Shown here piece by piece: positions 6,136-41,386 of a stretch of DNA of 64,000 bases. The DNA is from Bdellovibrionales bacterium. Lineage in GTDB: Bacteria > Bdellovibrionota > Bdellovibrionia > Bdellovibrionales > UBA1609. Location: the NCBI GenBank assembly GCA_965247685.1, contig OZ252021.1, positions 833,271 to 897,270 on the forward strand, given 5' to 3'. Made by a program: the position numbers and the translations under genes. The notes under the pieces are model-generated. The model saw only the letters and a list, made by a program, of their open reading frames with translations. It did not search any database and was not told the origin of the DNA. Position 1 is the stretch's first letter; the number at the start of each line of letters is the position of its first letter.

Positions 6136-6171
6136 GTTTTGATTGCACCACAATTTCCTATATGATAAAAT
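6136..6171 (+). repeat. Solo CRISPR repeat (35/36 match to array repeat)
   Basis: gttttgattgcacCacaatttcctatatgataaaat, same orientation as the array, with one substitution. It retains the TGaTAAAAT extended -10. Confidence 0.85.
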
Positions 6172-6177
6172 CACCAT

Positions 6178-6250
6178 ATAGAGGCACGCGAGCTGGGTCT
6201 CTATCTTTCATGGGTGCAAGAAGGTAGTGAGTTTTTCACCTTCTTTTTTA
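6178..6250 (+). ncRNA. Candidate small RNA driven by the solo-repeat promoter
   Basis: Starts about 7 nt after the repeat's TAAAAT. Contains an unusually GC-rich stem region (atagag-gcacgcgagctgggt-ctctat). Ends in a hairpin (agaaggt...accttct) plus a T-run at 6219-6249. No plus-strand CDS lies upstream that this terminator could serve. Confidence 0.3.
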
Positions 6251-6272
6251 TTATAAATTATTTAAAAATAAA

Positions 6273-6956
6273 TTATGGAAAGAACAGCGTTTTTATCCAA
6301 TGAGTAAAATTTCCTTTAAAGGTATTCATGGATTCACACGAGTATTCCTTTTGGTAAATGGGTTGATTAGAGTATTTTGAAAAATATTTTTTTACTTCTT
6401 GATCCGTCATAGGTTCTCTTTTTACAGGATACACATGACCAGTTGATTTTTTTCTCTTTTTGGTATCAAAATAAATTTTAGTTCCTTTTCTTGGGTGCTC
6501 TAAATAAGTAGAAGTCTCAGTGAGCTTGTGAGTTTTAAGATCTAAACTGAAAGTCACTAAGCTTGGACAGATAATATGTAAGCGAACGATTTGTTGATAC
6601 TCACCCTTATAAAGTTTATCAAAAGTTTTTGTTCCTTCCTCAGCTAATTTTCCAGTTGGAGCTTTTATACTTGTCAAAACTGTATCTTGGATATAGTTCA
6701 CTTGTGCCAATTGATCTGTGATTTGAATGTTATAGTGTCCACCCGGAGTTTTTGCATCTAAATGATCTTTATAATTCTTTTGTAAAGAACTTATGATTTT
6801 TGGAGGAAAGTCCATGTGATCGACTTGAATACCATTAAAATGTGACACAGAAAAAATAACACCTGTTCCAGTTTCTTTATGCAAGCAACTGTAATGTTTT
6901 TCTGCGCAGGCGTTAAAGCTGAATAAAATAAAAATAAGCAAGCAAAGTTTTTTCAT
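6273..6956 (-). CDS. Secreted hypothetical protein
   Basis: 227 aa with signal peptide (LCLLIFILFSFNACA). Lies between the two cassette copies. Confidence 0.55.
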   Translation of the reverse strand: MKKLCLLIFILFSFNACAEKHYSCLHKETGTGVIFSVSHFNGIQVDHMDFPPKIISSLQKNYKDHLDAKTPGGHYNIQITDQLAQVNYIQDTVLTSIKAPTGKLAEEGTKTFDKLYKGEYQQIVRLHIICPSLVTFSLDLKTHKLTETSTYLEHPRKGTKIYFDTKKRKKSTGHVYPVKREPMTDQEVKKYFSKYSNQPIYQKEYSCESMNTFKGNFTHWIKTLFFP

Positions 6957-7122
6957 CTTCTTGCTTTAAAGTAACAAAATATTAAAAAATATGCAATTTA
7001 GAGGCATTAGAATAAGTGATATTTTAGTATCAAAGTATTACAAACTCTTATCCATTTTCAATTTTATCAAAATGAAAAATTAATATTATACTATGTTCTG
7101 TTTGTCGTACTTAGCAGTGAGT

Positions 7123-8109
7123 TTAAGGCTTATTTGCTTCCCATTGCCTAATACGCTCTCGCTTTCTTTCAAGTTTATTTGCTTCATGTTCTTTGATTTT
7201 GTCTATCATCCTTTGCTTAACACGCTCTCGCACTCTTTTATCGGAGCCTGTAAGTAGAACTGTCATTGATCCAATGACTGTCACAGGTGTCGTAAAAATT
7301 CTTCCGAATTTCGAGAGCTTATTTCTAAGAGGTGCACCATATTTGGAAAATATTAATCCCACTCCAAGGGCTGTTCCCGCCACCCCTCCAGCTATTCTCG
7401 AATCCTCGTCGTCAGTCATAAGTTCCGTTATTTCGGAGCCAATCTGGTACCCAATAAATCCTGCTCCTGTTAGGAACATCGTGAATGCGGCGGCCCCTCT
7501 CACGCGAGCCAAGACTGCTGTTGTCATGCCCACTAGAGGAACTCCTATCACATAGTGACATGCCATGTTTACCAACCCAACGTCGTTTAAACAAGAATTC
7601 ACATCACGCAGTGCATCGAAGTAGAGCTGCAGAACAGGACGTACTGCTTCAATAGAGGCCTCGAATGTTCCGGCATCTTGACTGGCATTTTCAAACTCTG
7701 CATGAAAATAAGACTTGATAGTTGAATTTTCTTTATCCACTAAAAACTCTTTTGTTAGTTTATAAGTAGATACGAGATAATCTAACAACCCGTCAAACAT
7801 CCCTAAGCCACAACCTTTGATTCCGTCAAAGACTTCGTCTGAACTACAACCTTTAAGAAATTCCTTTTTCTCCCCTTTGCATTCAGGTCTTTTTTGCATC
7901 TTTTTGCAAAGCAAGTCATCAGTTGAAAATTCTATCAAGTCTCTTTCTCCTAAGTTGCTACTGAGTGGTGTTTTTTGAGGGCAATTTTGAGTAGTACAAG
8001 GACTTCCAGCTTCTGTATCAGATTCATCAGGATCATAGGAAAAACTAGATTCAGCGCTTAAAAGAAATAAACTTAATAGCACTACCTTTAAACTATTTTT
8101 TGTATTCAT
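7123..8109 (-). CDS. Secreted Cys-containing protein with C-terminal Gly-rich hydrophobic helices (cassette copy B)
   Basis: 328 aa. The first ~64 aa match copy A except one residue (G/E in the signal peptide). The central STYKLTKE..ENSTIKSYFHAEFENASQDAGT block is near-identical (one substitution). The membrane half is strongly diverged. The tail carries an extra ERKRERIRQWEANKP unit. Confidence 0.6.
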   Translation of the reverse strand: MNTKNSLKVVLLSLFLLSAESSFSYDPDESDTEAGSPCTTQNCPQKTPLSSNLGERDLIEFSTDDLLCKKMQKRPECKGEKKEFLKGCSSDEVFDGIKGCGLGMFDGLLDYLVSTYKLTKEFLVDKENSTIKSYFHAEFENASQDAGTFEASIEAVRPVLQLYFDALRDVNSCLNDVGLVNMACHYVIGVPLVGMTTAVLARVRGAAAFTMFLTGAGFIGYQIGSEITELMTDDEDSRIAGGVAGTALGVGLIFSKYGAPLRNKLSKFGRIFTTPVTVIGSMTVLLTGSDKRVRERVKQRMIDKIKEHEANKLERKRERIRQWEANKP

Positions 8110-8759
8110 TTCTCTTCTCCTTCTTTATCTTTACCTTTATTCTTATCTTTCTGATCTAAAACTGTCATTTGTATTCCTATTTTTTGTGCTTTTTTGAAAA
8201 ACCTACTCACACTTCTATTTTGAAGTGCCTCTGTTTTTGGACTAATCACCAATATTTGATAGATGTGATTTGAAAAATAAAGCAGTCTTTCTTTAAAGAA
8301 GACAAGTTGTGTAACATTTCTTTTATAAGAGCCAGTGATATTCAATTCAATAAATTTTTTTCTCTTCTTTAAACTGTGTTGATCGGCTTTCCAAGATCCG
8401 ATATTGAAGAGCATAAGATCTTCTTGTTTTAGTTGAACAAATTTTTCAAAAAAATCATCGGACTGTAATTCTTTCCAATCAACTTTTTTATCTTTTTTTT
8501 GGAGATAAAGAGTGCCAATAACTTTAGGATTGTCTTTTAATTTGTAAGTTGAAACTCCATCGGCGACACGAACTCCTGACCATTGAGAACCCATATCATG
8601 GATAGGAAGAGGAGCAGGAGCTAGCTCTAACTCTATTTTTTCTGTTTCTTTAGGAGATTGCTCTTTATTAGAAGTGTTATTTTTTTTTGAAAAGGCAGTC
8701 CCACTAATAAAAAGAGTTAATAAAATAAAAAATTTCATAAGGTAAATTATACGATACAT
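8106..8759 (-). CDS. Secreted hypothetical protein (cassette copy B)
   Basis: 217 aa, near-identical to 5117..5770. 4-nt overlap with 7123..8109. Confidence 0.6.
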   Translation of the reverse strand: MYRIIYLMKFFILLTLFISGTAFSKKNNTSNKEQSPKETEKIELELAPAPLPIHDMGSQWSGVRVADGVSTYKLKDNPKVIGTLYLQKKDKKVDWKELQSDDFFEKFVQLKQEDLMLFNIGSWKADQHSLKKRKKFIELNITGSYKRNVTQLVFFKERLLYFSNHIYQILVISPKTEALQNRSVSRFFKKAQKIGIQMTVLDQKDKNKGKDKEGEEK

Positions 8760-8897
8760 TGACGACAGTTATCAATGAAAGACTATTTATTAAGTTGATG
8801 TTCCTAGACCTTATCACCTCTAATACATCTTAATGTTTGTTTTATTTGTATAAATAATACTACAATTGATGATAAAGTATCTGGGGAATCAAATCAT

Positions 8898-9398
8898 ATG
8901 AAATTTAACAATCATGCTTTAGTATTTATTATCCTTACCCTTATCGCATCACTCACCAGTTGTTCTTCTTCTTCTCGAAAGACAAAAACAGATAACAATA
9001 GAGAATACTTGGACGGATACCTTCTTGCAACTCCTGATGATCCACCACCCAGTAAACAAGGTCCCTCTAACAACATCTATTATGGTCGATTTAAAACTTG
9101 CACTGCATACTCTGAACTCTCTAGATCTCAATTACCATTAATGGCACGATTAACACTTCCTTTGTTAGGAAAGTTGCAAGATCTAACTACGGTTGATTGC
9201 AAAACAGCTCACACCTGTGACTGCTATAAGAATGAACACTTGGTGGTAGAAAGCTCTTTTGAGCCACCCCTTTATAGGTGTGTGGAATCTTCCTCTGCCC
9301 AAGTAGAAAATGAGGAAATATACAAACCAAATGAGAGTTTCTCAGGAGACGGTGTTATAAAGTTTGCTCTTCCTCGATCGGTTTGTAATAAGAATTAA
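8898..9398 (+). CDS. Putative lipoprotein
   Basis: 166 aa with lipobox-like LTSCSSSS after a hydrophobic N-terminus. Cys-rich mature part. Confidence 0.55.
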   Translation: MKFNNHALVFIILTLIASLTSCSSSSRKTKTDNNREYLDGYLLATPDDPPPSKQGPSNNIYYGRFKTCTAYSELSRSQLPLMARLTLPLLGKLQDLTTVDCKTAHTCDCYKNEHLVVESSFEPPLYRCVESSSAQVENEEIYKPNESFSGDGVIKFALPRSVCNKN

Positions 9399-9432
9399 AT
9401 GCACTAATATAATGAGTGTTCTATTGTACTAA

Positions 9433-9537
9433 GATTTCAATTCTTCTTGAGAGACAAAATGCTAATCTTATGAATAAAACTGTTAGTAACAGGCAATACG
9501 ATAGAATTCAAAAAATTGACTGTAACTATATAGATCC
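9433..9537 (+). other. Second copy of the CRISPR leader
   Basis: About 105 nt aligning to 12549-12651, nearly identical from 'atgaataaaactgttagtaacaggcaatacgatagaattcaaaaaattgactgtaactata' onward. It directly abuts a repeat. Confidence 0.7.
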
Positions 9538-9573
9538 GTTTTGATTGCACTACAATTTCCTATATGATAAAAT
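9538..9573 (+). repeat. Solo CRISPR repeat (36/36) attached to the leader copy
   Basis: Perfect gttttgattgcactacaatttcctatatgataaaat with no second repeat after it. Confidence 0.9.
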
Positions 9574-9628
9574 CTATATCAAAACCAAGCTAACAAACAA
9601 AATAAATTTCAATTTGTAAGTAGTTTAA

Positions 9629-9982
9629 TTACTTCTCACATTGAAACTCATAATTATGAGTTGGGTTGTAGCCCATAATCCATAAAAAAGGAATCCAAAA
9701 AAATAGTCCGCCAATTAAAGCTCCAACACTTAACCGTTCAGTTCGACTGAACATTACAGATTGGCTTTGACAGCCTGCTTTTCTCAAATTAACAGATGTT
9801 GTAGAACCCACTACTTTAGTATCAGAGTGCAAAACCTCACCTGTACCTTGATATTGACCATCGACATACACTTTGACGTTGCGGTCAATATTGCCATTCC
9901 TATCTACTACACGAATAGATGTGGTGCTAGCACAAGATATTAAAGAGCTTGCTACACAAATAGAAATGATACGAAAAAACAT
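9629..9982 (-). CDS. Putative lipoprotein (PEGA-like beta domain plus C-terminal hydrophobic segment)
   Basis: 117 aa. Lipobox SLISC, a VKVYVDGQYQGTGEV motif, and a C-terminal GALIGGLFFWIPFLWIMG segment. Confidence 0.5.
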   Translation of the reverse strand: MFFRIISICVASSLISCASTTSIRVVDRNGNIDRNVKVYVDGQYQGTGEVLHSDTKVVGSTTSVNLRKAGCQSQSVMFSRTERLSVGALIGGLFFWIPFLWIMGYNPTHNYEFQCEK

Positions 9983-10259
9983 AAAAACCCCCTTGGAATA
10001 GTTTATAGCATCCTACTGAGATGATTTAACATAGTCAATAATCAAAAGAAAAATAAATGAAGAAGTGTTCATTTTAATCAAATTTATTACAAACTAAGGC
10101 TAAACCTGCAACCATAAGTAATGCCAATTCAAAGAACTCGCTATTTTTTTAAGGGTGTTCTTATGGAAGACATAGCTGAAAGACATCAAAATGTCTTTCA
10201 GGTTATTTTATACCGAGCACATGGGTAACACTTTCGCTCTAAAGGGATGATCTTACTTG

Positions 10260-11108
10260 TTAAAAGTTTATCTTTTTAACAATATCTTTTGTTGTTTGAA
10301 CATAGTATGAAAAATTTTGATTAAGACCTTTTACTGTAGATTGTACTTCTTGCCATCCTATTTCCTGTGATGTCAGAAAATCATCACTATTCAAACAAGA
10401 ATCAATCAATGAAAGAGGTACATTTTTTGCTTCAAATACCTTTACGATATGTTTGGACAGCTCTTTAAAAAAATCATTAATTTTTCCTTCATCAAGAACT
10501 TTTGTATAAATTTGTTCTATATCATAAAAGTCACGAGCCCTATTGTTATGTGTGCTTCGATACTTATAATCAGGATGAGATTGACATATAGCTCGAAGTT
10601 TTTCCAGAATAAGTAAAGCCTTGGAATAAACTTTTATTTCAATGGACTTTACTCTAATTATTTCGAAACTTTCACTGTATTCCATTTCACTGATATCAAT
10701 TGGAATTTTATTTGTTAACAAACCTTCCGGAATAATAGCGGAGGCGGATTTTTGATAGACTTTGTTGTTCTTTAGTTATGAGTTTAAATTCAATAGCCCA
10801 TCCACTCAAGGAGTCAGAACTCCAGTCTGTCTTATTATAGGTTTACGAATTGGTTTGAAATCGATAACATATAGTTTATTTTTTAAAAATTCTTTACGTA
10901 TTGCTGATTCAAGATAATTAAAAAAATTATTTTCTTTCTCAATTTTTTCAGGAAAAGAAAAATCAGAATCTCTGGATAATCGAGATTTTAAATTATGTAC
11001 AAATCTTAGAGCTTGTCCTCCTTTTAAATACATCTTTCCACTTAAGATATCATGTGAATAAATGGCTACAAGAATTTTCCAAACAACCTCTTCAGCGGTT
11101 ATCATCAA
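10260..11108 (-). pseudogene. AbiEii/AbiGii-family nucleotidyltransferase toxin gene with two in-frame stops
   Basis: ORFs 10806..11108 and 10260..10721 are in the same frame. They are separated by TGA (10806-10808) and TAA (10776-10778). The N-terminal part has the KGGQALRF..RLSRDSDFSF NTase-like motif. The restored length of about 280 codons fits the family. Confidence 0.6.
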
Positions 11109-11961
11109 TCACTCCTTTGGGATAATGAATTTTCCATTTTGAATCATAAGACCAATTTTTATTAAAATTTTTATCTAAATAAAATGTTATTTTAGGAGAA
11201 GAAAAATAATTTAACCATTTTTTGCTGATATGAGGTTCCTTTAATCTGGAAAGTAGGAAACCTATAGACTGCCAGTAAGGATAAAAAGGGGAATAAGCTT
11301 CATAAACTTTATAGAGTTTGTTAATGTTTATGCGAGCTTTAGCAAAAGCATTTATAAGAGTTTTAATTCCACCACTATAATGGGGGCTGATTAGAGAATC
11401 GATAAGTGTTCTTTCCAGTGATGTAAAAAATATTTTAACTTGTCTTGTTTTATCTATTTTCAGTAATTTATTTTTAACTCCTATTTTACCTAAGTCTTGT
11501 TTTTCTAATAATGTAATTTTAGTTTTTTGATACATAAAGTATTTAGATGTTTTTCTTGGGGATTTAAGGAAGGCTTGATGTATTTTTGCTGAAATCTTTT
11601 CCTTTGAATGAGTAGGAATTCTTCCAACAATCTCTTTGGATAAAAAATATTCTTCTGGCCTATGATTTGTTAATTCATTTAAGTATAAAGCTGAAAAATG
11701 ACTAAGGTAATATCTTGGATGAAAAGCTGTTAATATATCAATAATTTGGATCTTATTTAAATTAAAAGTTAAGAGCTTATAATCTGCTGTTGCATTCCAA
11801 ACTACAGGGACTTCTGTTACAGCTCTTAGAATACGTGTTTTTTCTTGATCTGTAATACGTTTGTTTTTATGCATTTTTTGAAGTAGTTTTTCCAATGTTA
11901 TCTCAGGAAAAACCATAGGTAATTTTGAAGAAAGTTCTGTTTTAAATTTTGCAATGGACAT
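11092..11961 (-). CDS. AbiEi-family antitoxin / transcriptional regulator
   Basis: 289 aa. Overlaps the downstream toxin gene by 17 nt. LSHFSALYLNELT and TSLERTLIDSL..P.YSGG motifs resemble AbiEi proteins. Confidence 0.6.
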   Translation of the reverse strand: MSIAKFKTELSSKLPMVFPEITLEKLLQKMHKNKRITDQEKTRILRAVTEVPVVWNATADYKLLTFNLNKIQIIDILTAFHPRYYLSHFSALYLNELTNHRPEEYFLSKEIVGRIPTHSKEKISAKIHQAFLKSPRKTSKYFMYQKTKITLLEKQDLGKIGVKNKLLKIDKTRQVKIFFTSLERTLIDSLISPHYSGGIKTLINAFAKARININKLYKVYEAYSPFYPYWQSIGFLLSRLKEPHISKKWLNYFSSPKITFYLDKNFNKNWSYDSKWKIHYPKGVIDDNR

Positions 11962-11983
11962 TACTGTTTAACTCTGTTTTATT

Positions 11984-12011
11984 GTATCATGTGTATATAT
12001 ACACATGATAC
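11984..12011. promoter_or_regulatory. Perfect 28-bp palindrome upstream of abiEi (candidate operator)
   Basis: gtatcatgtgtatatatacacatgatac, located 23 nt upstream of the abiEi start codon. Confidence 0.5.
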
Positions 12012-12171
12012 TTCTAATTTTAAGATAAGTCAAGAGAAAAAATGGTAATTTATTAGTTTACATAATTCTTAGTTTCTCCTACAATTTGAAGGGATTTTAA
12101 AGGGAAACTTCGGTTACTATAGGTTGTAAGCGGTTACCAACAGGATGAATAGGTGGTATTTTGTTTAATTT

Positions 12172-12326
12172 TGAAGTTATTTTAGAGTTTTGAAACCCTT
12201 ACCTTCTATCCCGTCCACCCCACAGATTTCTTCAAGAAGTGTAGAAAAAATATTTGGAACCTTTTGAACTTCATCTAAAACAACCTTCTTTGATAATCCT
12301 TTTACAAACCCAATAGGATCTTCTTT
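12172..12326 (-). pseudogene. Relic fragment of an AAA_14/DUF4143-type ATPase gene
   Basis: The minus-strand frame reads KEDPIGFVKGLSKKVVLDEVQKVPNIFSTLLEEI. This is a Walker-B-like VVLDEVQ..P context typical of that family. It is bounded by stops after about 50 codons. Confidence 0.25.
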
Positions 12327-12548
12327 GCTGTTTTAGTCACTACATCATCTTTAGCTATTCTGTTTGCCGTACTTAGCAGTGAGTTTAAGTTTAGAAAAAT
12401 AAAAAAGCATCTTGGAATAAACAAAAAGAAGTGAAGACAGGTTTTAGTGAAGTTAATTAAAGATTTTCTATCAGGATATGGAAGGGAGATTTTAACAGAG
12501 GCCATAAATAAAATAGAAAAATTTACTGGAGAAAGAGATTGGAGTAAG

Positions 12549-12651
12549 GATTTCAATTCTTATTGAGAGATAAAATGATATATATGAATAAAACTGTTAG
12601 TAACAGGCAATACGATAGAATTCAAAAAATTGACTGTAACTATATGGATCT
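12549..12651 (+). other. CRISPR leader (cas-distal end of array)
   Basis: 103-nt AT-rich sequence abutting repeat 1. It is conserved in a second copy at 9433-9537. Confidence 0.6.
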
Positions 12652-14270
12652 GTTTTGATTGCACTACAATTTCCTATATGATAAAATAAAGATATCAGCT
12701 CATCAAAAAAGCGGGTAGTTTTGATTGCACTACAATTTCCTATATGATAAAATGGTAAAACAATTTATAAGTATGCAAATGGTGTTTTGATTGCACTACA
12801 ATTTCCTATATGATAAAATGGGCTTGTTAAGCACTATTAATAGGTATATGTTTTGATTGCACTACAATTTCCTATATGATAAAATAGGTTGCGTTGAAAG
12901 TCTGTTTTGAAGGGCGTTTTGATTGCACTACAATTTCCTATATGATAAAATTGTTATATTATAGTTAAGTAAATAAATCTAGTTTTGATTGCACTACAAT
13001 TTCCTATATGATAAAATATAAATCTTGAACAATTCACTAAGATAATAGTTTTGATTGCACTACAATTTCCTATATGATAAAATTCTTCTTTTGTACTTTC
13101 TATTTTTGTAAGTGTTTTGATTGCACTACAATTTCCTATATGATAAAATTTAAAAGAAATAAACAAGGAGCTGGAAGTGGTTTTGATTGCACTACAATTT
13201 CCTATATGATAAAATTATTCGGTCATATTGTGTAAAGAGATCATGGTTTTGATTGCACTACAATTTCCTATATGATAAAATAAAGAATATGATGAATGAG
13301 GTGGCCAGAAGGTTTTGATTGCACTACAATTTCCTATATGATAAAATATATTATAGTTAAATAAACAATTGTCTAGGGTTTTGATTGCACTACAATTTCC
13401 TATATGATAAAATTGGTTTACAATTGGTGTAAAAACCAGCTGGGTTTTGATTGCACTACAATTTCCTATATGATAAAATATCTATAGATCAATTAAATAA
13501 AAAAGTCTAGTTTTGATTGCACTACAATTTCCTATATGATAAAATTGAAAAGCCGTGGTTGTCCGATAAGACTAGGTTTTGATTGCACTACAATTTCCTA
13601 TATGATAAAATATTACAAGTTGATTCACAAGCTCGGACGATGTTTTGATTGCACTACAATTTCCTATATGATAAAATATTTATAGAAGATTACAATAATA
13701 AATATGCGTTTTGATTGCACTACAATTTCCTATATGATAAAATACCACTAGAATAAATATGGATTGGAACTCCGTTTTGATTGCACTACAATTTCCTATA
13801 TGATAAAATTCATTGTACTGGATGGAATGAATATAATGTGTTTTGATTGCACTACAATTTCCTATATGATAAAATTCCTCGGTTAAGGACCTCGCCTCGA
13901 TTTATGTTTTGATTGCACTACAATTTCCTATATGATAAAATAGTTACAGAAATTGTGGGTTTCACAACTCCGTTTTGATTGCACTACAATTTCCTATATG
14001 ATAAAATGGGTCTTCGTTCCACACACCACCTGCGTTGGTTTTGATTGCACTACAATTTCCTATATGATAAAATAAATGTAAAATTTGAGAATGGATGTGC
14101 TTAGTTTTGATTGCACTACAATTTCCTATATGATAAAATTGAAGTGGCCGGAACTATTAATATTGCTACGTTTTGATTGCACTACAATTTCCTATATGAT
14201 AAAATTTATAAATATGCAAACGGTAGGAAGCCTTGTTTTGATTGCACTACAATTTCCTATATGATAAAAT
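12652..14270 (+). CRISPR. CRISPR array: 25 x 36-bp repeats, 24 spacers (23 x 30 nt, last one 29 nt)
   Basis: The repeat gttttgattgcactacaatttcctatatgataaaat recurs every 66 bp (12652, 12718 ... 14170, 14235). All 25 copies look identical. The plus-strand crRNA sense is inferred from tracrRNA complementarity. Confidence 0.97.
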
Positions 14271-14312
14271 AAGCCATTTATAACTCCTTGAAATTACAGG
14301 AGTTATTGGCTT
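14271..14312. terminator. Hairpin between array end and cas2 stop
   Basis: aagcca-ttt-ataactcct...aggagttat-tggctt imperfect inverted repeat. It is T-rich on the minus-strand side, downstream of cas2. Confidence 0.45.
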
Positions 14313-14321
14313 ATTAAAAAC

Positions 14322-14654
14322 TCAAAATAGTAGCAACTGTTGTTTCTTCTTAGTTAATTTTTCATCATACTTTCCACGAAAACTCACAATATTACTAAAC
14401 TGCTTATCCGTCACAGCTAATAGATCAATTTTCCCATTTTGAGGCAGTTGGTAAGAAATTTTTTTAATGAGACTTTCCACCTTTTCTTTACTAGGGCATA
14501 CCTTAGAATAAACAGAATATTGAACCATCTGAAAACCAAGATCCAATAAACGATACCTAAATTTAGATGCCATTTTTCTCTCTTTTTTTGTTGTTACCGG
14601 TAAATCAAAAAAAGTAAATAACCACATAACTCTATAATGACCTAAATAACTCAT
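14322..14654 (-). CDS. cas2: CRISPR-associated endoribonuclease Cas2
   Basis: 110 aa. VMWLFTFFDLPVTTKKERK..FRYRLLDLGFQMVQYSVY is typical of type II Cas2. ATGA overlap with the cas1 stop. Confidence 0.92.
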   Translation of the reverse strand: MSYLGHYRVMWLFTFFDLPVTTKKERKMASKFRYRLLDLGFQMVQYSVYSKVCPSKEKVESLIKKISYQLPQNGKIDLLAVTDKQFSNIVSFRGKYDEKLTKKKQQLLLF

Positions 14655-15601
14655 GCCGAAGTTTTTATTTTCTTAGAATATAAAAAACTTAAATTAAAAT
14701 TTTGCCAATTTATCTTTAGATTAATATCCCATTTTTTCTTTTCCTTACACAATACTAACGCCAAGGCGGTGGACATTCGAGAAATAACTTGAAACAGTGG
14801 ACTTATTCCAGAGCATCCTTCAACATCCACAATCACAAGACCTGACAGTACCTGCTTCACTTCCTTATTCACATCACGATATGCTTGTGAGTATAACTGT
14901 CTTACAACATAATCTGCGATAGGTCTAAAAGGCTCTATTAAGTCATCTACCAAACACATAGGATTATACATATTTCTATGATGAATACCTATACTAGGAT
15001 GAAGCCCTGACACAATAACACCTCTTGCAACACAAGACCGTATAATAGCATAAGCATAATTTAACATCGCATTAATGCCATCTCCATTTTGATCTCTTTT
15101 AAATTTGTTGGAAAATAATCTCATCCAATAGACCCTAGCACCTTGAGCTTCTAAATTATTCAAATCTCCAGGTTGAACTAAATTGGACATATTGAATAAT
15201 TTTTTATAAGGCAAACCTAACTCCTTCAATACTAAAGATTGATTTTTTAACTTTAACTTTACCACTTCTTTCCACAATCTTTTTTGTAAAGATTGACTCA
15301 TATTAACCTGAGATTGAATCCTTATATTTTGTTTACAATTTCCAACTAACGGCAAAAGAATAGCTCTTGGTGAAAAATTGGATCCACATATAGAAACTGG
15401 AATCCCACGATCTGATAATTCCACTAAAATATTAGAAGAATAAATACAACCATAACCTGTAATAACAATACCTAAAATATCATCAAGAGAAACACGAGAT
15501 AATAAATTCTGTTTTTCTTTGATCTCTAAAAACCCTCTATATAAACTTAGACGAATATTAGGTCTCGAGATTTCAATAAACTGTCCAAAACTACTACTCA
15601 C
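14651..15601 (-). CDS. cas1: CRISPR-associated integrase Cas1
   Basis: 316 aa. LNYAYAIIRSCVARGVIVSGLHPSIGIHHRN and DLIEPFRP motifs. Positioned between cas9 and cas2. Confidence 0.93.
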   Translation of the reverse strand: MSSSFGQFIEISRPNIRLSLYRGFLEIKEKQNLLSRVSLDDILGIVITGYGCIYSSNILVELSDRGIPVSICGSNFSPRAILLPLVGNCKQNIRIQSQVNMSQSLQKRLWKEVVKLKLKNQSLVLKELGLPYKKLFNMSNLVQPGDLNNLEAQGARVYWMRLFSNKFKRDQNGDGINAMLNYAYAIIRSCVARGVIVSGLHPSIGIHHRNMYNPMCLVDDLIEPFRPIADYVVRQLYSQAYRDVNKEVKQVLSGLVIVDVEGCSGISPLFQVISRMSTALALVLCKEKKKWDINLKINWQNFNLSFLYSKKIKTSA

Positions 15602-15610
15602 AAACTCAAC

Positions 15611-18600
15611 CTAAGCACTATGTCTTTTAGATTCTTCTTTACCAACAATAAAATCAGTCAATTGAACCAAACCACAAGGGCTAATATTAACTCGTTTAGG
15701 ATTACATTTTTGTAGAGAAGATGGACTCTTTTGTGTGTACTTATATTGATCTGATCTACTTCTGTTTCTTGCATCTACATTCGCTTCAAAATGCTCTGAA
15801 AATGTTAGATTTTTATTTTGTGTAAATTTAACAAGCCTCCAGAATCGACCAGCAAAAAATAACATATCCCCTTTCATCAATCTTGCTTTGTCTGGAATAG
15901 GCTTAAAAGTCTTTTGATTAGCAGAAAATATACTTATAACTTGTGCATCCCATTTTCCGCTTGAGTTTTTAAACAGTTGAATTGCATAATTTCCATCCTC
16001 CTGAAAAAATTTGTAAATTTTTCCAAATTTATTTTCAATAGGTATCACTCGTTCCTTTCTATTTAAGCGAACCCTGCGAATACCTGTTTTTTGGTGATAA
16101 TTAATTAAAAATTCTTTAGAGAGGGTATTATTGACTTTTAATTCTTTTAAAAAATCTTGTTTCACCTTTTCACTAATGATTCGACTTTCTATTTTCTTTT
16201 TATCTGCTCCGTTTAAAGTCAAAATTTCAACATAATGGATCACATTAATTGGCTTGGAAAAAGTATTAACACTACCTAATACCCCGTAAGCTGTATCATT
16301 GTGGAGTTGACCTGCTTTTTTAGTTCTCCTTCTGTGAGATACAATAATTTGATCTATTACTCTCTTAGCATCTTCTTTAAAAGAAGGCCAAGGAATCACA
16401 TCTTGTGTTATCACTCTACCAATATTCTCCAGCCTCTCTTTACTCTTTCCTTCTATTCCCTTCGCAATATTACTAATCTGTTGAACTAAAGAACGATCAA
16501 CTAAACCTATCACAAGAGCATCTTTTGCATGATGTCTATGATCGTTCCTATTTTTTTTATCATACTGTAACAAAGATCTTAAAAGAAATGTAGTCTGTCC
16601 TTTAACACTCCACACATCTTTACAAACTCTTCCTAAATACTGAATAGCATATTTAGATATATAACGAGTATCATTCAACTGCCTTTCTAAAAAGTTTCCA
16701 TTTTCTTCAAATTTCTTCATAGCATCCTTGTTAAATTTCCATCGTTTTTGCTCAGATAACTCATTAACTCTCTGAAGAATTCCTGCCCATCGCACTTTAT
16801 CAGATGAAAAGGCTTCATAAGGAGTTTGGTTCCCTTTTTGTTGATTAAAAACTTTATAAACCAACACTTTATTCATAAAGCCGTCATCTAAAGTCTTAGA
16901 GTAGGGCAATATGTGATCAACTTCCAGCTCTGGACTAAGAAGTTTAGTTTCTGGAATCTTTTTACCAGAGTAAACACAGGTATTGTTTTGCTCTTTCCAA
17001 AGCTTATATCTGACACGATTCGTTTTATTGTTAATTCCTCCAAACTCATCAATAAATTTTTTCGCATCTTCATTTCTTTTTTTATTATCATTTATTTTCT
17101 TATCTGATTTTTTTTTAGTTTCTGAGCCCATTGGTAAATCTCTAGCTGTCTCTATCACCACCTCCATCGGTTTTCCATAGACACGAAGGATATCATTTAC
17201 CAATAGCCTTAATTGATTAAAAGCAATATGGACTGTAGGATTTGGAATTCTGAAGGACTCAAATTTATTATGTTTACTCTCTGCTGTTTCAGACAATTTC
17301 ATCTCCACACAATGGTCTCCTAAAACTTGCTGATAAAGAGGTAGCTTGTCTAACAACTCACCTTTATGTCTCCTATCTGAATGATGCCAGCCTGCTAACT
17401 TAATAGCTTCAATTTCCAATTCTCCCTTTTCAAGAAAAGGTATAATTTTGTGAATAACTTTTCTACTGTATTTCCCATGATCTTGTGGAAGATCGTTCAT
17501 GTTTTCCAAAACGTTATCCAAAATTTGATCAGAAATATTTAAATTATTTTCTCTACTAAACTTTTGTAAATCTTTTAAGACTTCCTCATCCTTTTTTATA
17601 AAGATATCTTCTTGGCTTTCACCCTCCAATAACTCGATAAATTGATCCTGAATATCTAAAGACCAACTTTGCCAATCAGGTATAAGGTTTGTCAAAACTA
17701 TACTAGTTTGCTCTCCCTCTAAATAATTCCTATCGTTAATATCTAAGTTAAAACGAGAAAAGTCTTCTACATCAGAGAAAAAATTTTTAAATTCTTTTTC
17801 TAAAGAAGAAAATGTAACTTTATTTTTCTTTTGAAATAGCTTTTCAATAACATAATTTCTAAACTCAATACCTTTATCCATATCCTTCAATAACACACTT
17901 TCACCCATCATATTTATATAAGATAAATTATTTAATTCTTTTAAAATCCTAAATTTTTGAAAAGAAGGCAATGCTCTACTAATTCGTTTCTCACTAGGGA
18001 GAAAATAACATTTTCCGACAATAGACTTCTTTAATTGCCTTTGATGAAAAATAGCCTTATGAAATAAAGCTTTCAACTTTTGATCTTTCAACTTATCGTA
18101 ATATTGAGACTGAGAGTCCCAGAGTTTATTAAATTCATTTTCAATCATAGACCTTTGAGCATAAACAACATAATTCTCCTTAGCTCCAGCACCTATTGGC
18201 TTTCTAGCTAATATCCAGTGTTCTTGTTGAGATCCTGGGTGTTTTCTACTTTCTTCCATCTTTTGAAAACGTTTCCATAAAAATTCACCATATGTTCTAG
18301 CTCCACATTTTTCTAGTTGCTCTTCTGAATTTTCTACAGATTTAGCAATAATCCCATCCTCTTTTCCACTTCCTGATTTCCTATTACTTTTAAAACCTCT
18401 TCTTTGATTTAAGTGAAATAAAGCTCTTCCAAAATGATAAATATTCAACTTTTCATCCAGCCCCTTGGTTCTTATTTCATATGGGTTTAAATTTTGTAAC
18501 TCTTTTAAAGAACATTGATCCTCCGGGAATAATCCATATTTTTTCAACAAATGAAGAAGATAAGCTCTTCTCTGTAAATAACGATCTCTTTGTCTTCTTT

Positions 18601-18838
18601 GCAGCCTTGCCTGCCTGCGAGTGGCATTTAAAGTTGTATAATCTTTGGAATTTCTACCAGAGGGAAAAATCCTCACCCCTGCTTCTGTAATCTCTTTAGG
18701 ACTGTTGTTTTTATCTAAATTATATAAAGCCCACCCTATAGAATTAGTTCCTATGTCTAAAGCAAGTCTTAAGTTATTTGGGGGTTGTTTTAAATCTTGA
18801 TTTAGATCTTTCAGTTTTAAAATTTTATCACCTGACAT
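15611..18838 (-). CDS. cas9: Cas9 (type II-C-sized, 1075 aa)
   Basis: RuvC-I LALDIGTNSIGWAL. Arg-rich bridge helix RRQARLQRRQRDRYLQRR. RuvC-II VVIETARDL. HNH EVDHILPYS...NKVLV...N. RuvC-III HHAKDALVIG. All catalytic residues are present. Confidence 0.95.
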   Translation of the reverse strand: MSGDKILKLKDLNQDLKQPPNNLRLALDIGTNSIGWALYNLDKNNSPKEITEAGVRIFPSGRNSKDYTTLNATRRQARLQRRQRDRYLQRRAYLLHLLKKYGLFPEDQCSLKELQNLNPYEIRTKGLDEKLNIYHFGRALFHLNQRRGFKSNRKSGSGKEDGIIAKSVENSEEQLEKCGARTYGEFLWKRFQKMEESRKHPGSQQEHWILARKPIGAGAKENYVVYAQRSMIENEFNKLWDSQSQYYDKLKDQKLKALFHKAIFHQRQLKKSIVGKCYFLPSEKRISRALPSFQKFRILKELNNLSYINMMGESVLLKDMDKGIEFRNYVIEKLFQKKNKVTFSSLEKEFKNFFSDVEDFSRFNLDINDRNYLEGEQTSIVLTNLIPDWQSWSLDIQDQFIELLEGESQEDIFIKKDEEVLKDLQKFSRENNLNISDQILDNVLENMNDLPQDHGKYSRKVIHKIIPFLEKGELEIEAIKLAGWHHSDRRHKGELLDKLPLYQQVLGDHCVEMKLSETAESKHNKFESFRIPNPTVHIAFNQLRLLVNDILRVYGKPMEVVIETARDLPMGSETKKKSDKKINDNKKRNEDAKKFIDEFGGINNKTNRVRYKLWKEQNNTCVYSGKKIPETKLLSPELEVDHILPYSKTLDDGFMNKVLVYKVFNQQKGNQTPYEAFSSDKVRWAGILQRVNELSEQKRWKFNKDAMKKFEENGNFLERQLNDTRYISKYAIQYLGRVCKDVWSVKGQTTFLLRSLLQYDKKNRNDHRHHAKDALVIGLVDRSLVQQISNIAKGIEGKSKERLENIGRVITQDVIPWPSFKEDAKRVIDQIIVSHRRRTKKAGQLHNDTAYGVLGSVNTFSKPINVIHYVEILTLNGADKKKIESRIISEKVKQDFLKELKVNNTLSKEFLINYHQKTGIRRVRLNRKERVIPIENKFGKIYKFFQEDGNYAIQLFKNSSGKWDAQVISIFSANQKTFKPIPDKARLMKGDMLFFAGRFWRLVKFTQNKNLTFSEHFEANVDARNRSRSDQYKYTQKSPSSLQKCNPKRVNISPCGLVQLTDFIVGKEESKRHSA

Positions 18839-19044
18839 AAAAAAAACTCCTTTATAAATATACAGTCACTTTGAAAGTAGTTTCGGATAAAATATTAAAA
18901 ACATTAGGAATAATTTTACTTTTTTAATAAAAAAATAAAATCTATTTCATAATGAAACATAAAAATAGAGTATGAAAAAAAATTATACAGTAAATAATCA
19001 AAAAAACATTTGATCATATTGATAAACTATGTTCTAATGATCAA

Positions 19045-19130
19045 CAATCATATAGGAAATTGTGGTACTCTCAATAACAAGCGAGTATTCGCACCAGTCT
19101 TAGGCGAAGGAAACTTCGCCTTTGTTTTTT
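19045..19130 (+). ncRNA. tracrRNA: tracrRNA
   Basis: Anti-repeat atcatataggaaattgtggtac (19047-19068) is complementary to repeat nt 10-31, with one G:U and one A:C. The tcaa at 19072-19075 can pair again with repeat nt 4-7 after an internal loop. Small hairpin gcga-gtat-tcgc. Terminator ggcgaagg-aaa-cttcgcc plus T-run (19103-19130). Promoter-like TTGATC-N17-TCTAAT at 19010-19038. Confidence 0.8.
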
Positions 19131-19346
19131 CTATATTAAAAAATAAATCTTTTAATATCTGCATAAAAAGCCCCTTTCCAAAAGATAGGTAATAAGAAGA
19201 AGACTGTACACCTTTTGCACATTCATATTTTTGAGATGGCTGATAATTCAATTGGTCTCTTCCAAGATAAACAGATTTTTTAATAAAAAACTGAATATTT
19301 GTATATACTTTAGAATTTTTCTATAAGATCAAATAAGACTTTTATG

Positions 19347-19382
19347 GTTTTGATTGTACTACAATTTCCCGTAGGTAAAACT
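19347..19382 (+). repeat. Degenerate solo CRISPR repeat next to the tracrRNA
   Basis: gttttgattgTactacaatttccCGtaGgTAaaaCt. The first 23 nt match the repeat except C11T; the 3' third has decayed and the embedded -10 is lost. Confidence 0.7.
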
Positions 19383-19587
19383 TATAGAATCAACAGCCTA
19401 TATACTTTTTTGAATTTTATCACTGATAGAAGTTGATCTGTTTTTGTCACAACTGATCATAACTAAAATTAAAAAAAAATCCCAAATGGAACGATAAAGT
19501 TTTTACTGATTTTGATTAAGAATTTCGTTTCTTATCTTCAGTATATATGCTTTCGTGAGGGTTGCTTAATACCTAAGATCTTAAGTA

Positions 19588-21228
19588 TTAAACTCTATTC
19601 AGTACACTATCGCATTCACGTTCTTGATATAAATCTTCAAGAGCTGCTACAGGCTCTTTTGCGTATGTCAGTAACTTACAAGCCTGAATAAGGTTATTTT
19701 CTTTTCTGTAATATAGATTACTTAATAAATATAAATACAAAGGATTCCTTAATTGAGCAAGTCCTTGAAACAGTTGATGAGCTTCTTTAAATTGCCGTGT
19801 CAAATAAAACTGATGACCCACAACAAATTGTGCTTCTAAATTACCTGCTTGAGCCGCTTCACGTATACGTATATCAAGTCTTTGAATATTTGTAATATTC
19901 TTTTGAACTAAAAACTTCAAAATATTTTTATCTACCTCATTTAGTTCTGGATTTGAACTGGACAATTTGTGGTAAGTATCGAGCAAATCATCTTTGTTTA
20001 CAGGGTTTAAAAAATTGGATAAAATCATATCATTATCTAAGTAAAATATAGCTCTCATCATCAAATCTTTTTTATTTTCTTCATCAGATAATAATTGATA
20101 GTAAAACAATGATTCTTGCTCTTTAATCAAGCTAGCTATACTCTCTTTACTTGTTTTCAAGGAAGACATAAAATTCTCGAAACCATTATTGATAGGAATT
20201 ACATTCAAGTGCCTACACTCTGATGAAGGATGGATAGAGGAGGTAATTCCAATAATTTTCCCATCCTGATTTAAAGCAGGGCTTCCGCTGATTCCAATTA
20301 AAGTCTTACAAGAAGTCATATTATGAGAAACCATAAAAGAAGTGTATAAGGAATTTATTGAAAATGCGTTTGTAGCTTTTATTTTTTGTAAACCCCATTT
20401 TGTAGGGTAACCTAAAATATAATTTGGAACTTCATTCAAGTAATCATCCGCTAAACTTAAAGTAGACCCTGTATAATTTTCCACCTCCAAAACAGCTAGA
20501 TCCATCAAAAGAGACAAATCTCTAACACCTGTGATAAGAAACTTTTGATCTCCTTGCTCAACATAAAAAGGAGTATTAGATGTCTTCTTAAACCAATCTT
20601 GATCAGGAATATTCATTTGAATTAAAAGCCATAGAATGCTTCCAAAAATATGATAATTAGTAACAAATATTGGTTGTTTATTAGAGTCTTTAATGAAGAA
20701 TCCAGATCCGATACCTTCGCTTCTTGTATCAACATCTTCTCTAAATTGCACAATAACTCGTCCAACTCCACTTTGAGTTTTCTCCAGCCATTGTGGAAAG
20801 ATTAATTCTTCTTGGTGATTAGTTTTATCAACTGAGCTAGTTTCTTCTTGCGAAGAAAAATCTTCTGGAGACTCTTCTTTAGGATCGATACAAAACTCTG
20901 AATATCTTCCATTTGAGTGTAATTCTATAAAACAGTCTTTGATATAGGGAGACTGTGTGCTCAACATTTCTAAAGCATTGTTCCGAGGATCAGAGTTATC
21001 TCCTCTTATCTCTATCGAACAGTTTTTAGAATAACCTGTTAATACTTTCTCAATAGAGCATTCTTTTGTATATTCTTGTAATAGAAAAGTTTCCGAGGAA
21101 TTCACTTCCACGATTTCCCCTCCCACTAACTTTTTTTTCCCTTTCAAAGGATCTAAAAGAATCTTGGAGTCATCTGCATAAAGATGAAAGGAAGTCAAAA
21201 ACAACAAAAGACAAATTAAATTTTTCAT
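19588..21228 (-). CDS. Secreted trypsin-like serine protease with C-terminal Sel1/TPR-like repeats
   Basis: 546 aa with a signal peptide. Catalytic-triad contexts VTNYHIF (His), DLAVLEV (Asp) and GISGSPAL (Ser). C-terminal AAQAGNLEAQFVVGHQFY is Sel1-like. Confidence 0.8.
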   Translation of the reverse strand: MKNLICLLLFLTSFHLYADDSKILLDPLKGKKKLVGGEIVEVNSSETFLLQEYTKECSIEKVLTGYSKNCSIEIRGDNSDPRNNALEMLSTQSPYIKDCFIELHSNGRYSEFCIDPKEESPEDFSSQEETSSVDKTNHQEELIFPQWLEKTQSGVGRVIVQFREDVDTRSEGIGSGFFIKDSNKQPIFVTNYHIFGSILWLLIQMNIPDQDWFKKTSNTPFYVEQGDQKFLITGVRDLSLLMDLAVLEVENYTGSTLSLADDYLNEVPNYILGYPTKWGLQKIKATNAFSINSLYTSFMVSHNMTSCKTLIGISGSPALNQDGKIIGITSSIHPSSECRHLNVIPINNGFENFMSSLKTSKESIASLIKEQESLFYYQLLSDEENKKDLMMRAIFYLDNDMILSNFLNPVNKDDLLDTYHKLSSSNPELNEVDKNILKFLVQKNITNIQRLDIRIREAAQAGNLEAQFVVGHQFYLTRQFKEAHQLFQGLAQLRNPLYLYLLSNLYYRKENNLIQACKLLTYAKEPVAALEDLYQERECDSVLNRV

Positions 21229-21336: not shown

Positions 21337-22350
21337 CTACAAGCTAGCTACAGATTGTTCGCATTTTCGCCTTTCTGCTTCTTGAAGAATTTTCCCTGCA
21401 TATGGAAAACTACTTGAAATTGCCATAAATGAAGGTTTTCGATCCTGGTTATCTGGGATGCTCGGATCTGCTCCGAGTTCGAGAAGAGTGGTTATTGTAT
21501 TTTGATGACCTTGTTCAGCTGCATGGTGTAAAGGTGTTTGACCTTTATTATCTTGTTCATTTAGATTTACTCCTTCTCTGTCGAAAAGTCTTATCATATA
21601 TGAACGACCTTTTGTAGCTTCCAAGTGTAGAACTGTTTCACCCTTGTTATTTTTTCTATCCAGATCTGGTTTGTATTTGAAGAAAATTTCTGCCAGAAAT
21701 GAATGACCCTTGTATTGGTGGGCTACGAGTGAAAGTAGGTGTAAAGGTGTTTGGCCCTTGTTATTTTGGCTATTCAGATCTGCTCCATTTTTAGCAAGAT
21801 GGATTGCTATACCTGAGAAGAAATTTCTTACTTGAACTGCACGATGTAAAGGAGTGTTACCTTCGTTATCTTTGATTTTTAAAACTTCTACTAAATCTTC
21901 TACTTCGATTTTTTTGAAGAGATTTTGTAATTCACGTGAACTGCTTGCTTGAGCTAACAGGTGTAAAGGTGTTTGACCCTTGTTATTTTGGCTGTCTAGC
22001 CTTGTTTTGTTGAAGAGAGTTTTTGTTACGAGTGAATGACGTGCTTCAATTGCAAGATGTAAAGGTGTTTGACCTTCATTATCTGGTTTATTCAGAACTG
22101 CTCCATGTTGGAAGAGAACGTTTGCCATACGTGAATTACCTCTTTGAGCTGCTATATGTAAGGCTGTTTGACCCTTGTCATATTTGGTATTTAATAAATC
22201 TCTTACTGTCGAAAGATCTGTTGCTTTAAGAAAAGTATCAATTTTCCGAGCATTTCCTTTTTGAACTAAATCGAAAAATTGATTTTCAAGTTCTTTTGCT
22301 CCTGCATAAGTAGTAAAACATAATATTATTCCGATAACATAAATTTTCAT
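21337..22350 (-). CDS. Secreted ankyrin-repeat protein
   Basis: 337 aa with a signal peptide. Repeated GQTPLHLA/NKGQTPLHLL ANK units, a family distinct from the 69-3609 genes. Confidence 0.9.
   Translation of the reverse strand: MKIYVIGIILCFTTYAGAKELENQFFDLVQKGNARKIDTFLKATDLSTVRDLLNTKYDKGQTALHIAAQRGNSRMANVLFQHGAVLNKPDNEGQTPLHLAIEARHSLVTKTLFNKTRLDSQNNKGQTPLHLLAQASSSRELQNLFKKIEVEDLVEVLKIKDNEGNTPLHRAVQVRNFFSGIAIHLAKNGADLNSQNNKGQTPLHLLSLVAHQYKGHSFLAEIFFKYKPDLDRKNNKGETVLHLEATKGRSYMIRLFDREGVNLNEQDNKGQTPLHHAAEQGHQNTITTLLELGADPSIPDNQDRKPSFMAISSSFPYAGKILQEAERRKCEQSVASL

Positions 22351-38134: not shown

Positions 38135-39646
<1,512 letters not shown>

Positions 39647-41309: not shown

Positions 41310-41386
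<77 letters not shown>

Follow-up and report, generated by a model that had tools for sequence, protein, structure and literature searches.

Among type II-C CRISPR-Cas9 systems, the repeats of Campylobacter jejuni take the form GTTTT...TATGxTAAAAT, which appears similar to that of the repeat described here, and the PAM preferences of GeoCas9 and ThermoCas9 are of the N4CRAA/N4CNNA type. In Neisseria, an extended -10 promoter lies at the 3' end of each repeat and the array is read towards the cas genes (PMC5965381, PMC12080349); new spacers enter, as a II-C rule, at the cas2-proximal repeat (PMC12080349). The locus analyzed here lies in a 64-kb stretch of Bdellovibrionales DNA (the window); its host is probably uncultured and AT-rich, with ~1.3 Mb of genome. 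Read from its sequence, the locus is very probably a complete, apparently working adaptive immune system of type II-C, in the style of Neisseria and Campylobacter. It is of the known compact II-C kind, and its novelty is that of a new Cas9 member only, without new biology. A literature search found Cas9 never mentioned together with Bdellovibrionales, and the clade to which this Cas9 belongs is without a characterised member.

The cas operon and its proteins

The features of the locus are collected in Table 1. On the minus strand cas9, cas1 and cas2 are contiguous and make up one operon, with 9 nt separating cas9 from cas1 and a 4-nt overlap of cas1 and cas2; another 51 nt lead from the cas2 stop codon to the last repeat. 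Profile searches and PADLOC find csn2 and cas4 neither in the operon nor among the neighbouring ORFs, and the subtype is therefore II-C; related loci likewise have only three cas genes. The predicted cas9 promoter points away from the tracrRNA promoter, the two forming a divergent pair. The flanking ORFs encode a trypsin-like peptidase, an ankyrin protein, AbiEi/AbiEii and products without matches. The AbiEii gene adjoining the array is split, so that gene decay or assembly errors do occur near the locus. One protein flanking the locus is 48% identical to the product of a gene beside the related locus L081.

Table 1. Features of the CRISPR-Cas9 locus and its surroundings (positions in the window)
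Feature	Position	Strand	Description
solo repeat	6136-6171	+	35/36 identical to array repeat (T14C); 6.5 kb from array
flank copy	9423-9537	+	copy of the 114-nt flank preceding the first array repeat
solo repeat	9538-9573	+	36/36 identical; 3078 bp upstream of array
flank before first repeat	12538-12651	+	114 nt; oldest, 'extra' repeat end
CRISPR array	12652-14270	+	25 identical 36-bp repeats, 24 spacers; each repeat ends in extended -10 box TGATAAAAT
cas2-array junction	14271-14321	unstranded	inverted repeat ATAACTCCT-TGAAATTAC-AGGAGTTAT at 14280-14306
cas2	14322-14654	-	110 aa; ORF, TIGR01573, PADLOC Cas2_II
cas1	14651-15601	-	316 aa, GTG start; type II/NMENI class
cas9	15611-18838	-	1075 aa; RuvC and HNH catalytic residues intact
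predicted cas9 promoter	18982-18989	-	extended -10 box TGTATAAT; read by eye, absent from promoter scan calls
predicted tracrRNA promoter	19010-19038	+	TTGATC-17 nt-TCTAAT; aligned upstream regions
tracrRNA	about 19042-19130	+	terminator call, folding, cofold, covariation
degenerate repeat	19347-19382	+	29/36; one difference in first 23 nt; same orientation as array, beyond cas9

Cas9 scores 616 bits against TIGR01865 (cut-off 100) and matches the Pfam families HNH_4, RuvC_III and Cas9_a; Cas1 scores 228 bits against TIGR03639 (cas1_NMENI, the type II Cas1), Cas2 is assigned to TIGR01573, and PADLOC calls Cas9, Cas1_II (2e-88) and Cas2_II (9e-41). Thus cas1 and cas2 of the type II class adjoin a cas9 whose product has the HNH domain and the split RuvC domain (I, II and III) of type II. 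The catalytic residues of Cas9 are D28 (RuvC-I, LDIGTNSIGWA), E563, D641-H642, N665, H770 and D773; they are invariant or nearly so in 19 clade members, and D641-H642 lies within EVDHILPYS, which aligns with the HNH motif of ThermoCas9/GeoCas9. An AF2 model of the protein (pLDDT 71), compared with the PDB by Foldseek, has only Cas9s as its top matches (Nme1, Hpa, Thermo, Sa and Geo; E 1e-40 to 1e-31). Against the solved II-C Cas9s, HMMER reaches E ~1e-68, with 19-23% identity over structural alignments, and by sequence and by fold the solved enzymes that match best are Thermo/Geo, Nme1/Nme2 and Hpa, all of them II-C. Compact proteobacterial Cas9s encoded in the same three-gene locus are its database neighbours at 35-39% identity. 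By these best sequence and fold matches the protein groups with II-C orthologs. Its identity to any other database protein, itself apart, is at most 66%.

The preliminary description of this DNA had proposed a complete II-C system with all its protein and RNA parts, and the ORFs, protein families, array and tracrRNA all bear it out. Its contiguous cas9-cas1-cas2 genes, 51-nt gap and missing csn2 and cas4 are confirmed by ORF coordinates and profile searches, as is its Cas9 of 1075 aa with intact RuvC and HNH motifs, by residues located and conserved in the 19 clade members. The suggestion that Cas9 is a distant ortholog agrees with the identities just given (at most 66% to other database proteins, 19-23% to solved II-C Cas9s). 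The comparison with known orthologs that it called for finds the protein not near-identical to any characterised enzyme, the solved ones being only distantly related.

Array, tracrRNA and a model of their action

The repeat, GTTTTGATTGCACTACAATTTCCTATATGATAAAAT on the plus strand, is present in exactly 25 copies. Spacer length is 30 nt in 23 of the 24 spacers and 29 nt in the other; all are different, none is duplicated, and two pairs are partly similar. Repeats of 36 bp with unique spacers of 29-30 nt are those of a type II array, and the earlier counts of 25 identical repeats and 24 unique spacers are exact. The 23-nt core of the repeat has 28 matches in the window against 0 expected by chance. 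No spacer targets the window itself, even with up to 7 mismatches allowed.

The tracrRNA, ~85 nt long, is encoded divergently, ~200 nt upstream of cas9. Its anti-repeat (19047-19078) pairs with repeat nt 31-1 and is followed by hairpin 1 (19081-19092), by a terminator hairpin called by the terminator scan (19102-19121) and by a T-run, so that anti-repeat, stem-loops and terminator of a type II tracrRNA are all present. The folding z-score is -3.8, and repeat and tracrRNA cofold at -51.6 kcal/mol. The same RNA is found in the same place in seven related loci (L001-L003, L081-L084), and TTGACA occupies the same promoter place in five of seven relatives. RNAalifold, applied to repeat-GAAA-tracrRNA chimeras of eight loci, yields 41 pairs; 12 of these show compensatory double changes, seven of the 12 within the repeat:anti-repeat duplex, and both hairpins covary too. 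A search of Rfam with 12000-20000 at E up to 1 gives no match, and no curated tracrRNA or CRISPR-DR family covers the repeat. The eight loci thus provide a clean tracrRNA model backed by covariation. The upstream tracrRNA had been placed correctly beforehand, as terminator, duplex and covariation in eight loci agree. The sgRNA proposed with it, from 12652-12675 and 19047-19130, stands as to the place of the tracrRNA and needs correction at one end: for a 24-nt repeat stub the matching start is ~19054, and the layout becomes guide, GTTTTGATTGCACTACAATTTCCT, GAAA and 19054-19130.

The repeat complements the tracrRNA only with the array read on the plus strand, and array transcription is therefore on that strand, towards cas2. 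The extended -10 box, TGnTAnnAT, ends the repeat in eight of eight loci. A promoter scan places plus-strand promoter-like sites inside the repeats, such hexamers occurring at chance density in the AT-rich DNA here. Operon, tracrRNA placement and array orientation come from sequence and comparison; for transcription and interference the II-C model is followed, after Zhang 2013 and Dugar 2013 as reviewed in PMC5965381 and PMC12080349. On that model, each repeat's 3'-terminal extended -10 box would start a short transcript whose 5' end lies a few nt inside the next spacer and which carries a guide of ~23-24 nt and the following repeat. The crRNA would pair with the tracrRNA in a duplex whose upper stem has 20 bp and whose lower stem, beyond an internal loop, has 7 bp and one bulge; Cas9 would bind this duplex, RNase III trimming being optional, and the complex would cut PAM-flanked DNA through its HNH and RuvC sites. 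Cas1-Cas2 would put new spacers at the cas2-proximal repeat, beside the conserved hairpin of the cas2-array junction.

This junction hairpin is kept in eight of eight loci, with the loop TGAAATTAC or variants of it, whereas the far-end flank is not conserved. We infer that the junction serves as the acquisition-side leader and as a bidirectional stop; the terminator scan called no terminator at its inverted repeat. By the II-C rule on spacer entry, 12549-12651 flanks the array at its oldest end rather than being a leader for acquisition. The newest spacer would then be 14206-14234 and the old end 12652. The far-end repeat is the only mutated one in L002 and L084, the change lying in nt 1-2, as expected of an old 'extra' II-C repeat. 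Here the first repeat is unmutated, and the flank before it, which has no conservation in relatives and no significant RNA structure (z -0.13), contains no hairpin or terminator of the kind that suppresses extraneous crRNA in PMC12080349. Thus, none of the three published safeguards against extraneous crRNA is visible. The eight-locus comparison independently supports the II-C rule by which the conserved, acquiring side of the array is its cas-proximal junction rather than its far end.

Spacer targets, extra repeats and other readings

The spacers were searched for protospacers in phage, plasmid and metagenome data, as had been proposed for deriving the PAM; the search found none and yielded no PAM. 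The whole array, compared with INPHARED phages and PLSDB plasmids, has only chance-level matches (E at least 0.4), and spacer cores find no protospacer in IMG/VR and JGI metagenomes. Twelve IMG/VR matches to TTATAARTATGCAAAYGGT do not extend past the pattern and look like chance or a common YKYANG coding motif; the one match that the repeat core has in IMG/VR (L097) is due to chance. Eight related arrays have no spacer in common, hence this comparison offers no flank information. With no protospacer found, no PAM can be derived, and the only hint comes from overlapping spacers 2 and 24, through the 3' flank AGGAAGCCTT: their sequences hint at AGGAAGCC as PAM. The newest spacer and the old one that it overlaps differ at two positions, as if a single evolving target had been met more than once.

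Outside the array there are three more copies of the repeat (6136, 9538 and 19347), all on the plus strand and all keeping the 23-nt core that binds Cas9 and tracrRNA (one base is changed at 19347). The segment 9423-9573 is 93% identical to 12538-12687, the repeat being included in the measurement. The repeats at 6136 and 9538 bracket two gene blocks of ~3 kb each, 6172-9422 and 9574-12537, both on the array's old-end side; these blocks hold an AbiE toxin-antitoxin pair and, from a duplicated pair of secreted-looking genes, one copy. With the repeat at 19347 situated past cas9, the entire cas operon stands between direct repeats. Similar layouts occur in L081, L082, L083 and L084. That such repeats are recombination or capture sites, shuffling defence and effector cassettes or the cas module, or else sources of orphan guide-like regulatory RNA, is highly improbable. 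Split arrays or extra repeats are also found in ~13 of 42 other II-C loci, which weakens the case for orphan repeats as a peculiarity of this clade. The copy at 19347-19382 is most likely a decayed direct repeat, a relic. As a second tracrRNA or scaRNA it was rejected: it has no structure on either strand, its place and orientation are not conserved, and it has no exact seed match.

An opposite orientation would give that degenerate copy a function: the array would be read on the minus strand as one pre-crRNA from the cas2 side, II-A style, with 19347-19382 as anti-repeat. Alternatively, the copy would encode a second tracrRNA or a scaRNA-like regulator. The copy does match the repeat at 29 of 36 positions, and at 22 of 23 in the Cas9-bound part, and a plus-strand promoter-like site ends at 19309; however, promoter-like sites are at chance level, shuffled sequences fold as well as either strand around the copy (z 0.03 and 0.55), and its surroundings lack a terminator. 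In L001 the element is doubled and inverted, in L002 it lies 6 kb away, and L003 lacks it, whereas the RNA at 19042-19130, which covaries in all eight loci, needs plus-strand crRNAs. An exact match to the 12-nt seed that such a guide would have is absent from the rest of the window, and none of the seed's four one-mismatch matches falls at a regulatory site. A minus-strand reading, or a second RNA of this kind, is scarcely credible on this evidence, and the plus-strand reading is retained. The system thus oriented might nonetheless be an intact-looking but inactive relic in a shrinking symbiont-type genome, e.g., through lack of expression or of ongoing adaptation, and the small size (1.28 Mb) of a contig with the identical protein, the split AbiEii toxin, the scattered solo and degenerate repeats and spacers that match no known mobile element would all fit. 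Yet the three cas ORFs are full length by comparison with relatives (Cas1 317 aa and Cas2 110 aa there), the catalytic residues are intact, 25 of 25 repeats are identical and 24 of 24 spacers different, the overlap of the newest spacer with an old one, differing at two positions, points to repeated encounters with an evolving target, and promoter, duplex and terminator of the tracrRNA are intact; inactivity is accordingly unlikely. The apparent functionality suggested at the outset keeps the support of intact genes, uniform repeats and unique spacers, and has no protospacer match for any spacer on its side.

Relation to characterized type II-C systems

The system shares with the II-C system of Neisseria meningitidis (Nme1Cas9, 1082 aa) an operon of cas9, cas1 and cas2 only, 36-bp repeats and 30-nt spacers, as well as an extended -10 promoter in each repeat, predicted here from the motif, and an array directed towards the cas genes (PMC5965381, PMC12080349). 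Nme1Cas9 is of similarly compact size and is the best structural match (6je4/6jdq, E ~1e-39), but identity is ~20% over the structural alignment (HMMER E 1e-62), repeat and tracrRNA are of unrelated sequence, and the tracrRNA here is divergent upstream of cas9. Repeat-borne promoters and spacer acquisition at the last repeat, both predicted here, are likenesses to Campylobacter jejuni (PMC12080349), whose CjeCas9 (984 aa) is ~90 aa shorter and a much weaker sequence match (5x2g, E 3e-27). Among solved structures, the Geobacillus II-C enzymes GeoCas9/ThermoCas9 (1082-1087 aa) match best in sequence (9ar4, E 4e-68; 8jtj, E 2e-67), with RuvC-I and HNH motifs aligning residue for residue; they differ in host lineage and base composition, and identity over the structural alignment is ~21-23%. 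At ~20% identity to enzymes in use, PAM and properties of this Cas9 may differ from theirs. The locus supplies a full parts list (protein, crRNA repeat, tracrRNA and sgRNA design) for a compact 1075-aa Cas9, of modest practical value.

The closest relatives are the Cas9s of a clade from 'Bdellovibrionales' MAGs (P0002-P0036; L001-L003, L081-L084), at 51-66% identity. The clade has ~35 database members, from uncultured, small-genome, AT-rich bacteria. Its loci have gene order, repeat family, tracrRNA and junction hairpin in common with the one described here, but they share no spacer with it and are flanked by other genes.

The cas9 operon and the protein it encodes

The cas9, cas1 and cas2 ORFs are contiguous on the minus strand. 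Cas9 matches TIGR01865 at 616 bits (cut-off 100) and has the Pfam domains HNH_4, RuvC_III and Cas9_a; Cas1 and Cas2 match TIGR03639 (228 bits) and TIGR01573, and PADLOC concurs on the identities of Cas9, type II Cas1 and Cas2. Neither csn2 nor cas4 turned up in the locus or among neighbouring ORFs (Pfam, PADLOC). The intergenic gaps are too short and the adjoining ORFs are of other kinds (trypsin-like peptidase, ankyrin protein, AbiEi/AbiEii, ORFs with no hit); both genes are therefore absent, as the preliminary description had it. That description, of a complete type II-C CRISPR-Cas9 system, also had every number right: the 1075 aa of Cas9, the 51 nt from the cas2 stop to the array, the 25 repeats and the 24 spacers.

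Features of the CRISPR-Cas9 locus and its surroundings (window positions)
Feature	Position	Strand	Remark
Solo repeat	6136-6171	+	35/36 identical to array repeat; 6.5 kb past old end
Solo repeat	9538-9573	+	36/36 identical; 3.1 kb past old end
AbiEii	10806-11108 and 10260-10721	-	split in two ORFs; AbiE module 10260-11961
AbiEi	11092-11961	-	type IV toxin-antitoxin module AbiE, between solo repeat and array
CRISPR array	12652-14270	+ (reading strand)	25 repeats, 24 spacers
cas2	14322-14654	-	110 aa
cas1 (type II)	14651-15601	-	316 aa, GTG start
cas9	15611-18838	-	1075 aa
tracrRNA anti-repeat	19047-19078	+	complementary to repeat nt 31-1
tracrRNA hairpin	19081-19092	+	GCGA-GUAU-UCGC, directly after anti-repeat
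tracrRNA terminator	19102-19121	+	called by scan; G+C-rich hairpin and T-run
Degenerate direct repeat	19347-19382	+	29/36 overall, 22/23 in core
tRNA genes	31708-31781 and 41310-41383

The claim of intact RuvC and HNH motifs likewise holds: the catalytic residues (D28, E563, D641-H642, N665, H770, D773) align with the RuvC-I and HNH motifs of ThermoCas9 and GeoCas9 and are invariant or nearly so across 19 clade members. With an AlphaFold2 model (mean pLDDT 71), the top PDB matches are all Cas9 structures, the closest being Nme1Cas9 (E 8e-40), HpaCas9, ThermoCas9, SaCas9 and GeoCas9. An identical Cas9 is present in NCBI/ENA on a 1,280,446-bp contig; the next-best database protein is 66% identical, in keeping with the expectation that this is no near-copy of a characterised ortholog. 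Some 35 proteins lie at 51-66% identity, beyond which identity falls to ≤39% (compact proteobacterial II-C Cas9s). The named relatives are on 'MAG: Bdellovibrionales bacterium' chromosomes of 1.3-2.3 Mb, and a literature search found no paper naming Cas9 together with Bdellovibrionales.

Guide RNAs, array polarity and targets

The anti-repeat is encoded on the strand opposite cas9, ~200 nt upstream of that gene. In its duplex with the repeat, an internal loop separates an upper stem of 20 bp from a lower stem of 7 bp that has a single bulged base; the repeat:tracrRNA cofold amounts to -51.6 kcal/mol. A tracrRNA stands at the equivalent position in all seven related loci compared (L001-L003, taken from GTDB genomes, and L081-L084, from ENA assemblies), and five of them have a TTGACA -35 box upstream. 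RNAalifold, run on repeat-GAAA-tracrRNA chimeras, predicts 41 pairs, 12 of them with compensatory double changes, seven of these in the repeat:anti-repeat duplex (e.g., in L083 the repeat has UU in place of CC and the tracrRNA, correspondingly, AA in place of GG). An Rfam search of 12000-20000 gave no match. The duplex, the called terminator, folding far better than shuffles (z -3.8) and covariation across the eight loci bear out the proposed tracrRNA. Since it is encoded on the plus strand, so are the crRNAs, and the array is read towards cas2.

The repeat, GTTTTGATTGCACTACAATTTCCTATATGATAAAAT, is present in exactly 25 copies, separated by 24 different spacers, all 30 nt long except one of 29 nt; across the window there are 28 matches to its 23-nt core, with 0 expected by chance. 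In II-C arrays new spacers enter at the repeat that is transcribed last, and the first repeat is an old "extra" one, often mutated (PMC12080349). The eight loci fit this rule: each has, in its cas2-array junction (51 nt here), a hairpin whose loop is conserved (TGAAATTAC and variants), the flanks at the far end are unrelated from locus to locus, and L002 and L084 carry a mutation (nt 1-2) in the far-end repeat and in no other. Rule and comparison together make 14206-14234 the newest spacer and 12549-12651 old-end flank rather than acquisition leader. The system within 12549-19382 is complete; that span starts in old-end flank and closes on a degenerate repeat (19347-19382), not on tracrRNA.

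The newest spacer and the second-oldest (12754-12783) overlap by 19 nt, 17 of them identical, which looks like two samplings of one evolving target. The spacer at 12952-12981 partly resembles those at 13348-13377 and 13480-13509 (21/26 identities); such groups suggest that homologous sites in diverged mobile elements were sampled more than once. From the overlap just one 3' flank can be inferred, AGGAAGCCTT, which is a hint but does not define a PAM. The spacer search proposed for finding the PAM gave chance-level BLAST matches in phages and plasmids, none extending past the pattern in scans of IMG/VR and metagenomes, and none elsewhere in the window with 7 or fewer mismatches; with no protospacer, no PAM was derived.

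Repeat copies outside the array and the gene neighbourhood

Three further repeat copies, all on the plus strand, lie outside the array. The stretch ahead of the 9538 solo repeat (9423-9537) is a copy of the 114 nt that precede the first repeat of the array; with the repeat included, 9423-9573 and 12538-12687 are 93% identical. The degenerate copy sits past cas9 and the tracrRNA, so that direct repeat copies flank the cas operon. A role as second tracrRNA was rejected: on both strands the fold is no better than that of shuffles, there is no terminator, and its counterparts in relatives vary in place and orientation. If it did supply a guide, the 12-nt seed would match nothing else in the window exactly; the four matches with one mismatch fall at no regulatory site. 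Near-intact copies occupy a similar position in L083 and L082.

The array is preceded by 290 nt that form a mosaic, with pieces recurring at 3891-3972, 5862-5931 and 7096-7127, adjoining a duplicated gene pair (217 aa and 312/328 aa). The 1.65-kb segmental duplication (4187-5825 vs 7173-8814, 91% identity) places one copy between the solo repeats, where small ORFs also lie; the pair's N-termini resemble signal peptides, and neither gene has a Pfam match. The relatives likewise have solo repeats or split arrays: ~1.4 kb past the old end in L084 and L081, as a copy (96%) of old-end repeat and flank upstream of cas9 in L083, and beside a PDDEXK_2 gene in L082. PDDEXK_2 (Rpn/YhgA-like nuclease) genes in L082 (2906-4026 and 12828-14159) adjoin both the solo repeat upstream of cas9 and the array's old end, and are a possible agent of the rearrangements. 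Of 42 II-C loci that are more distant, about 13 are fragmented in the same way, and we therefore read the solo and split repeats as probable products of ordinary recombination and decay around arrays.

The AbiEii split is either a frameshift or an assembly error; an AbiEii gene also adjoins the L084 array. One flanking gene encodes a solute-binding protein that shares 48% identity with a protein encoded beside L081. Several ankyrin-repeat protein genes (69-3600 and 21337-22350) are present, the first block built of 99-bp tandem units and itself duplicated (~1630-bp spacing). Host-associated bacteria typically carry genes of this sort. The 16S rRNA gene (38135-39646) is complete and is followed by protein-coding ORFs with no adjoining 23S, i.e., an unlinked rRNA operon, as found in many reduced genomes. 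Together with a G+C content of ~33% in the window, these features suggest a host-associated lifestyle.

A probably functional system of a known kind

The preliminary finding is real and its interpretation right. A compact, so far uncharacterised Cas9 with a ready sgRNA design is of some use; the sgRNA can indeed be taken directly from the locus, as 24-nt repeat stub, loop and window 19054-19130, the tracrRNA part beginning there rather than at 19047. The biology is already known in kind and is unlikely to surprise a specialist. An extended -10 box (TGnTAnnAT) closes the repeat variants of all eight loci, and a promoter scan places a plus-strand promoter-like site inside the repeats. A promoter within each repeat has been shown experimentally for the N. 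meningitidis and C. jejuni II-C arrays (review PMC5965381; PMC12080349). We infer that this array would be transcribed in the same manner; the locus is a complete, probably functional type II-C system, with predicted repeat-borne promoters in the style of N. meningitidis and C. jejuni.
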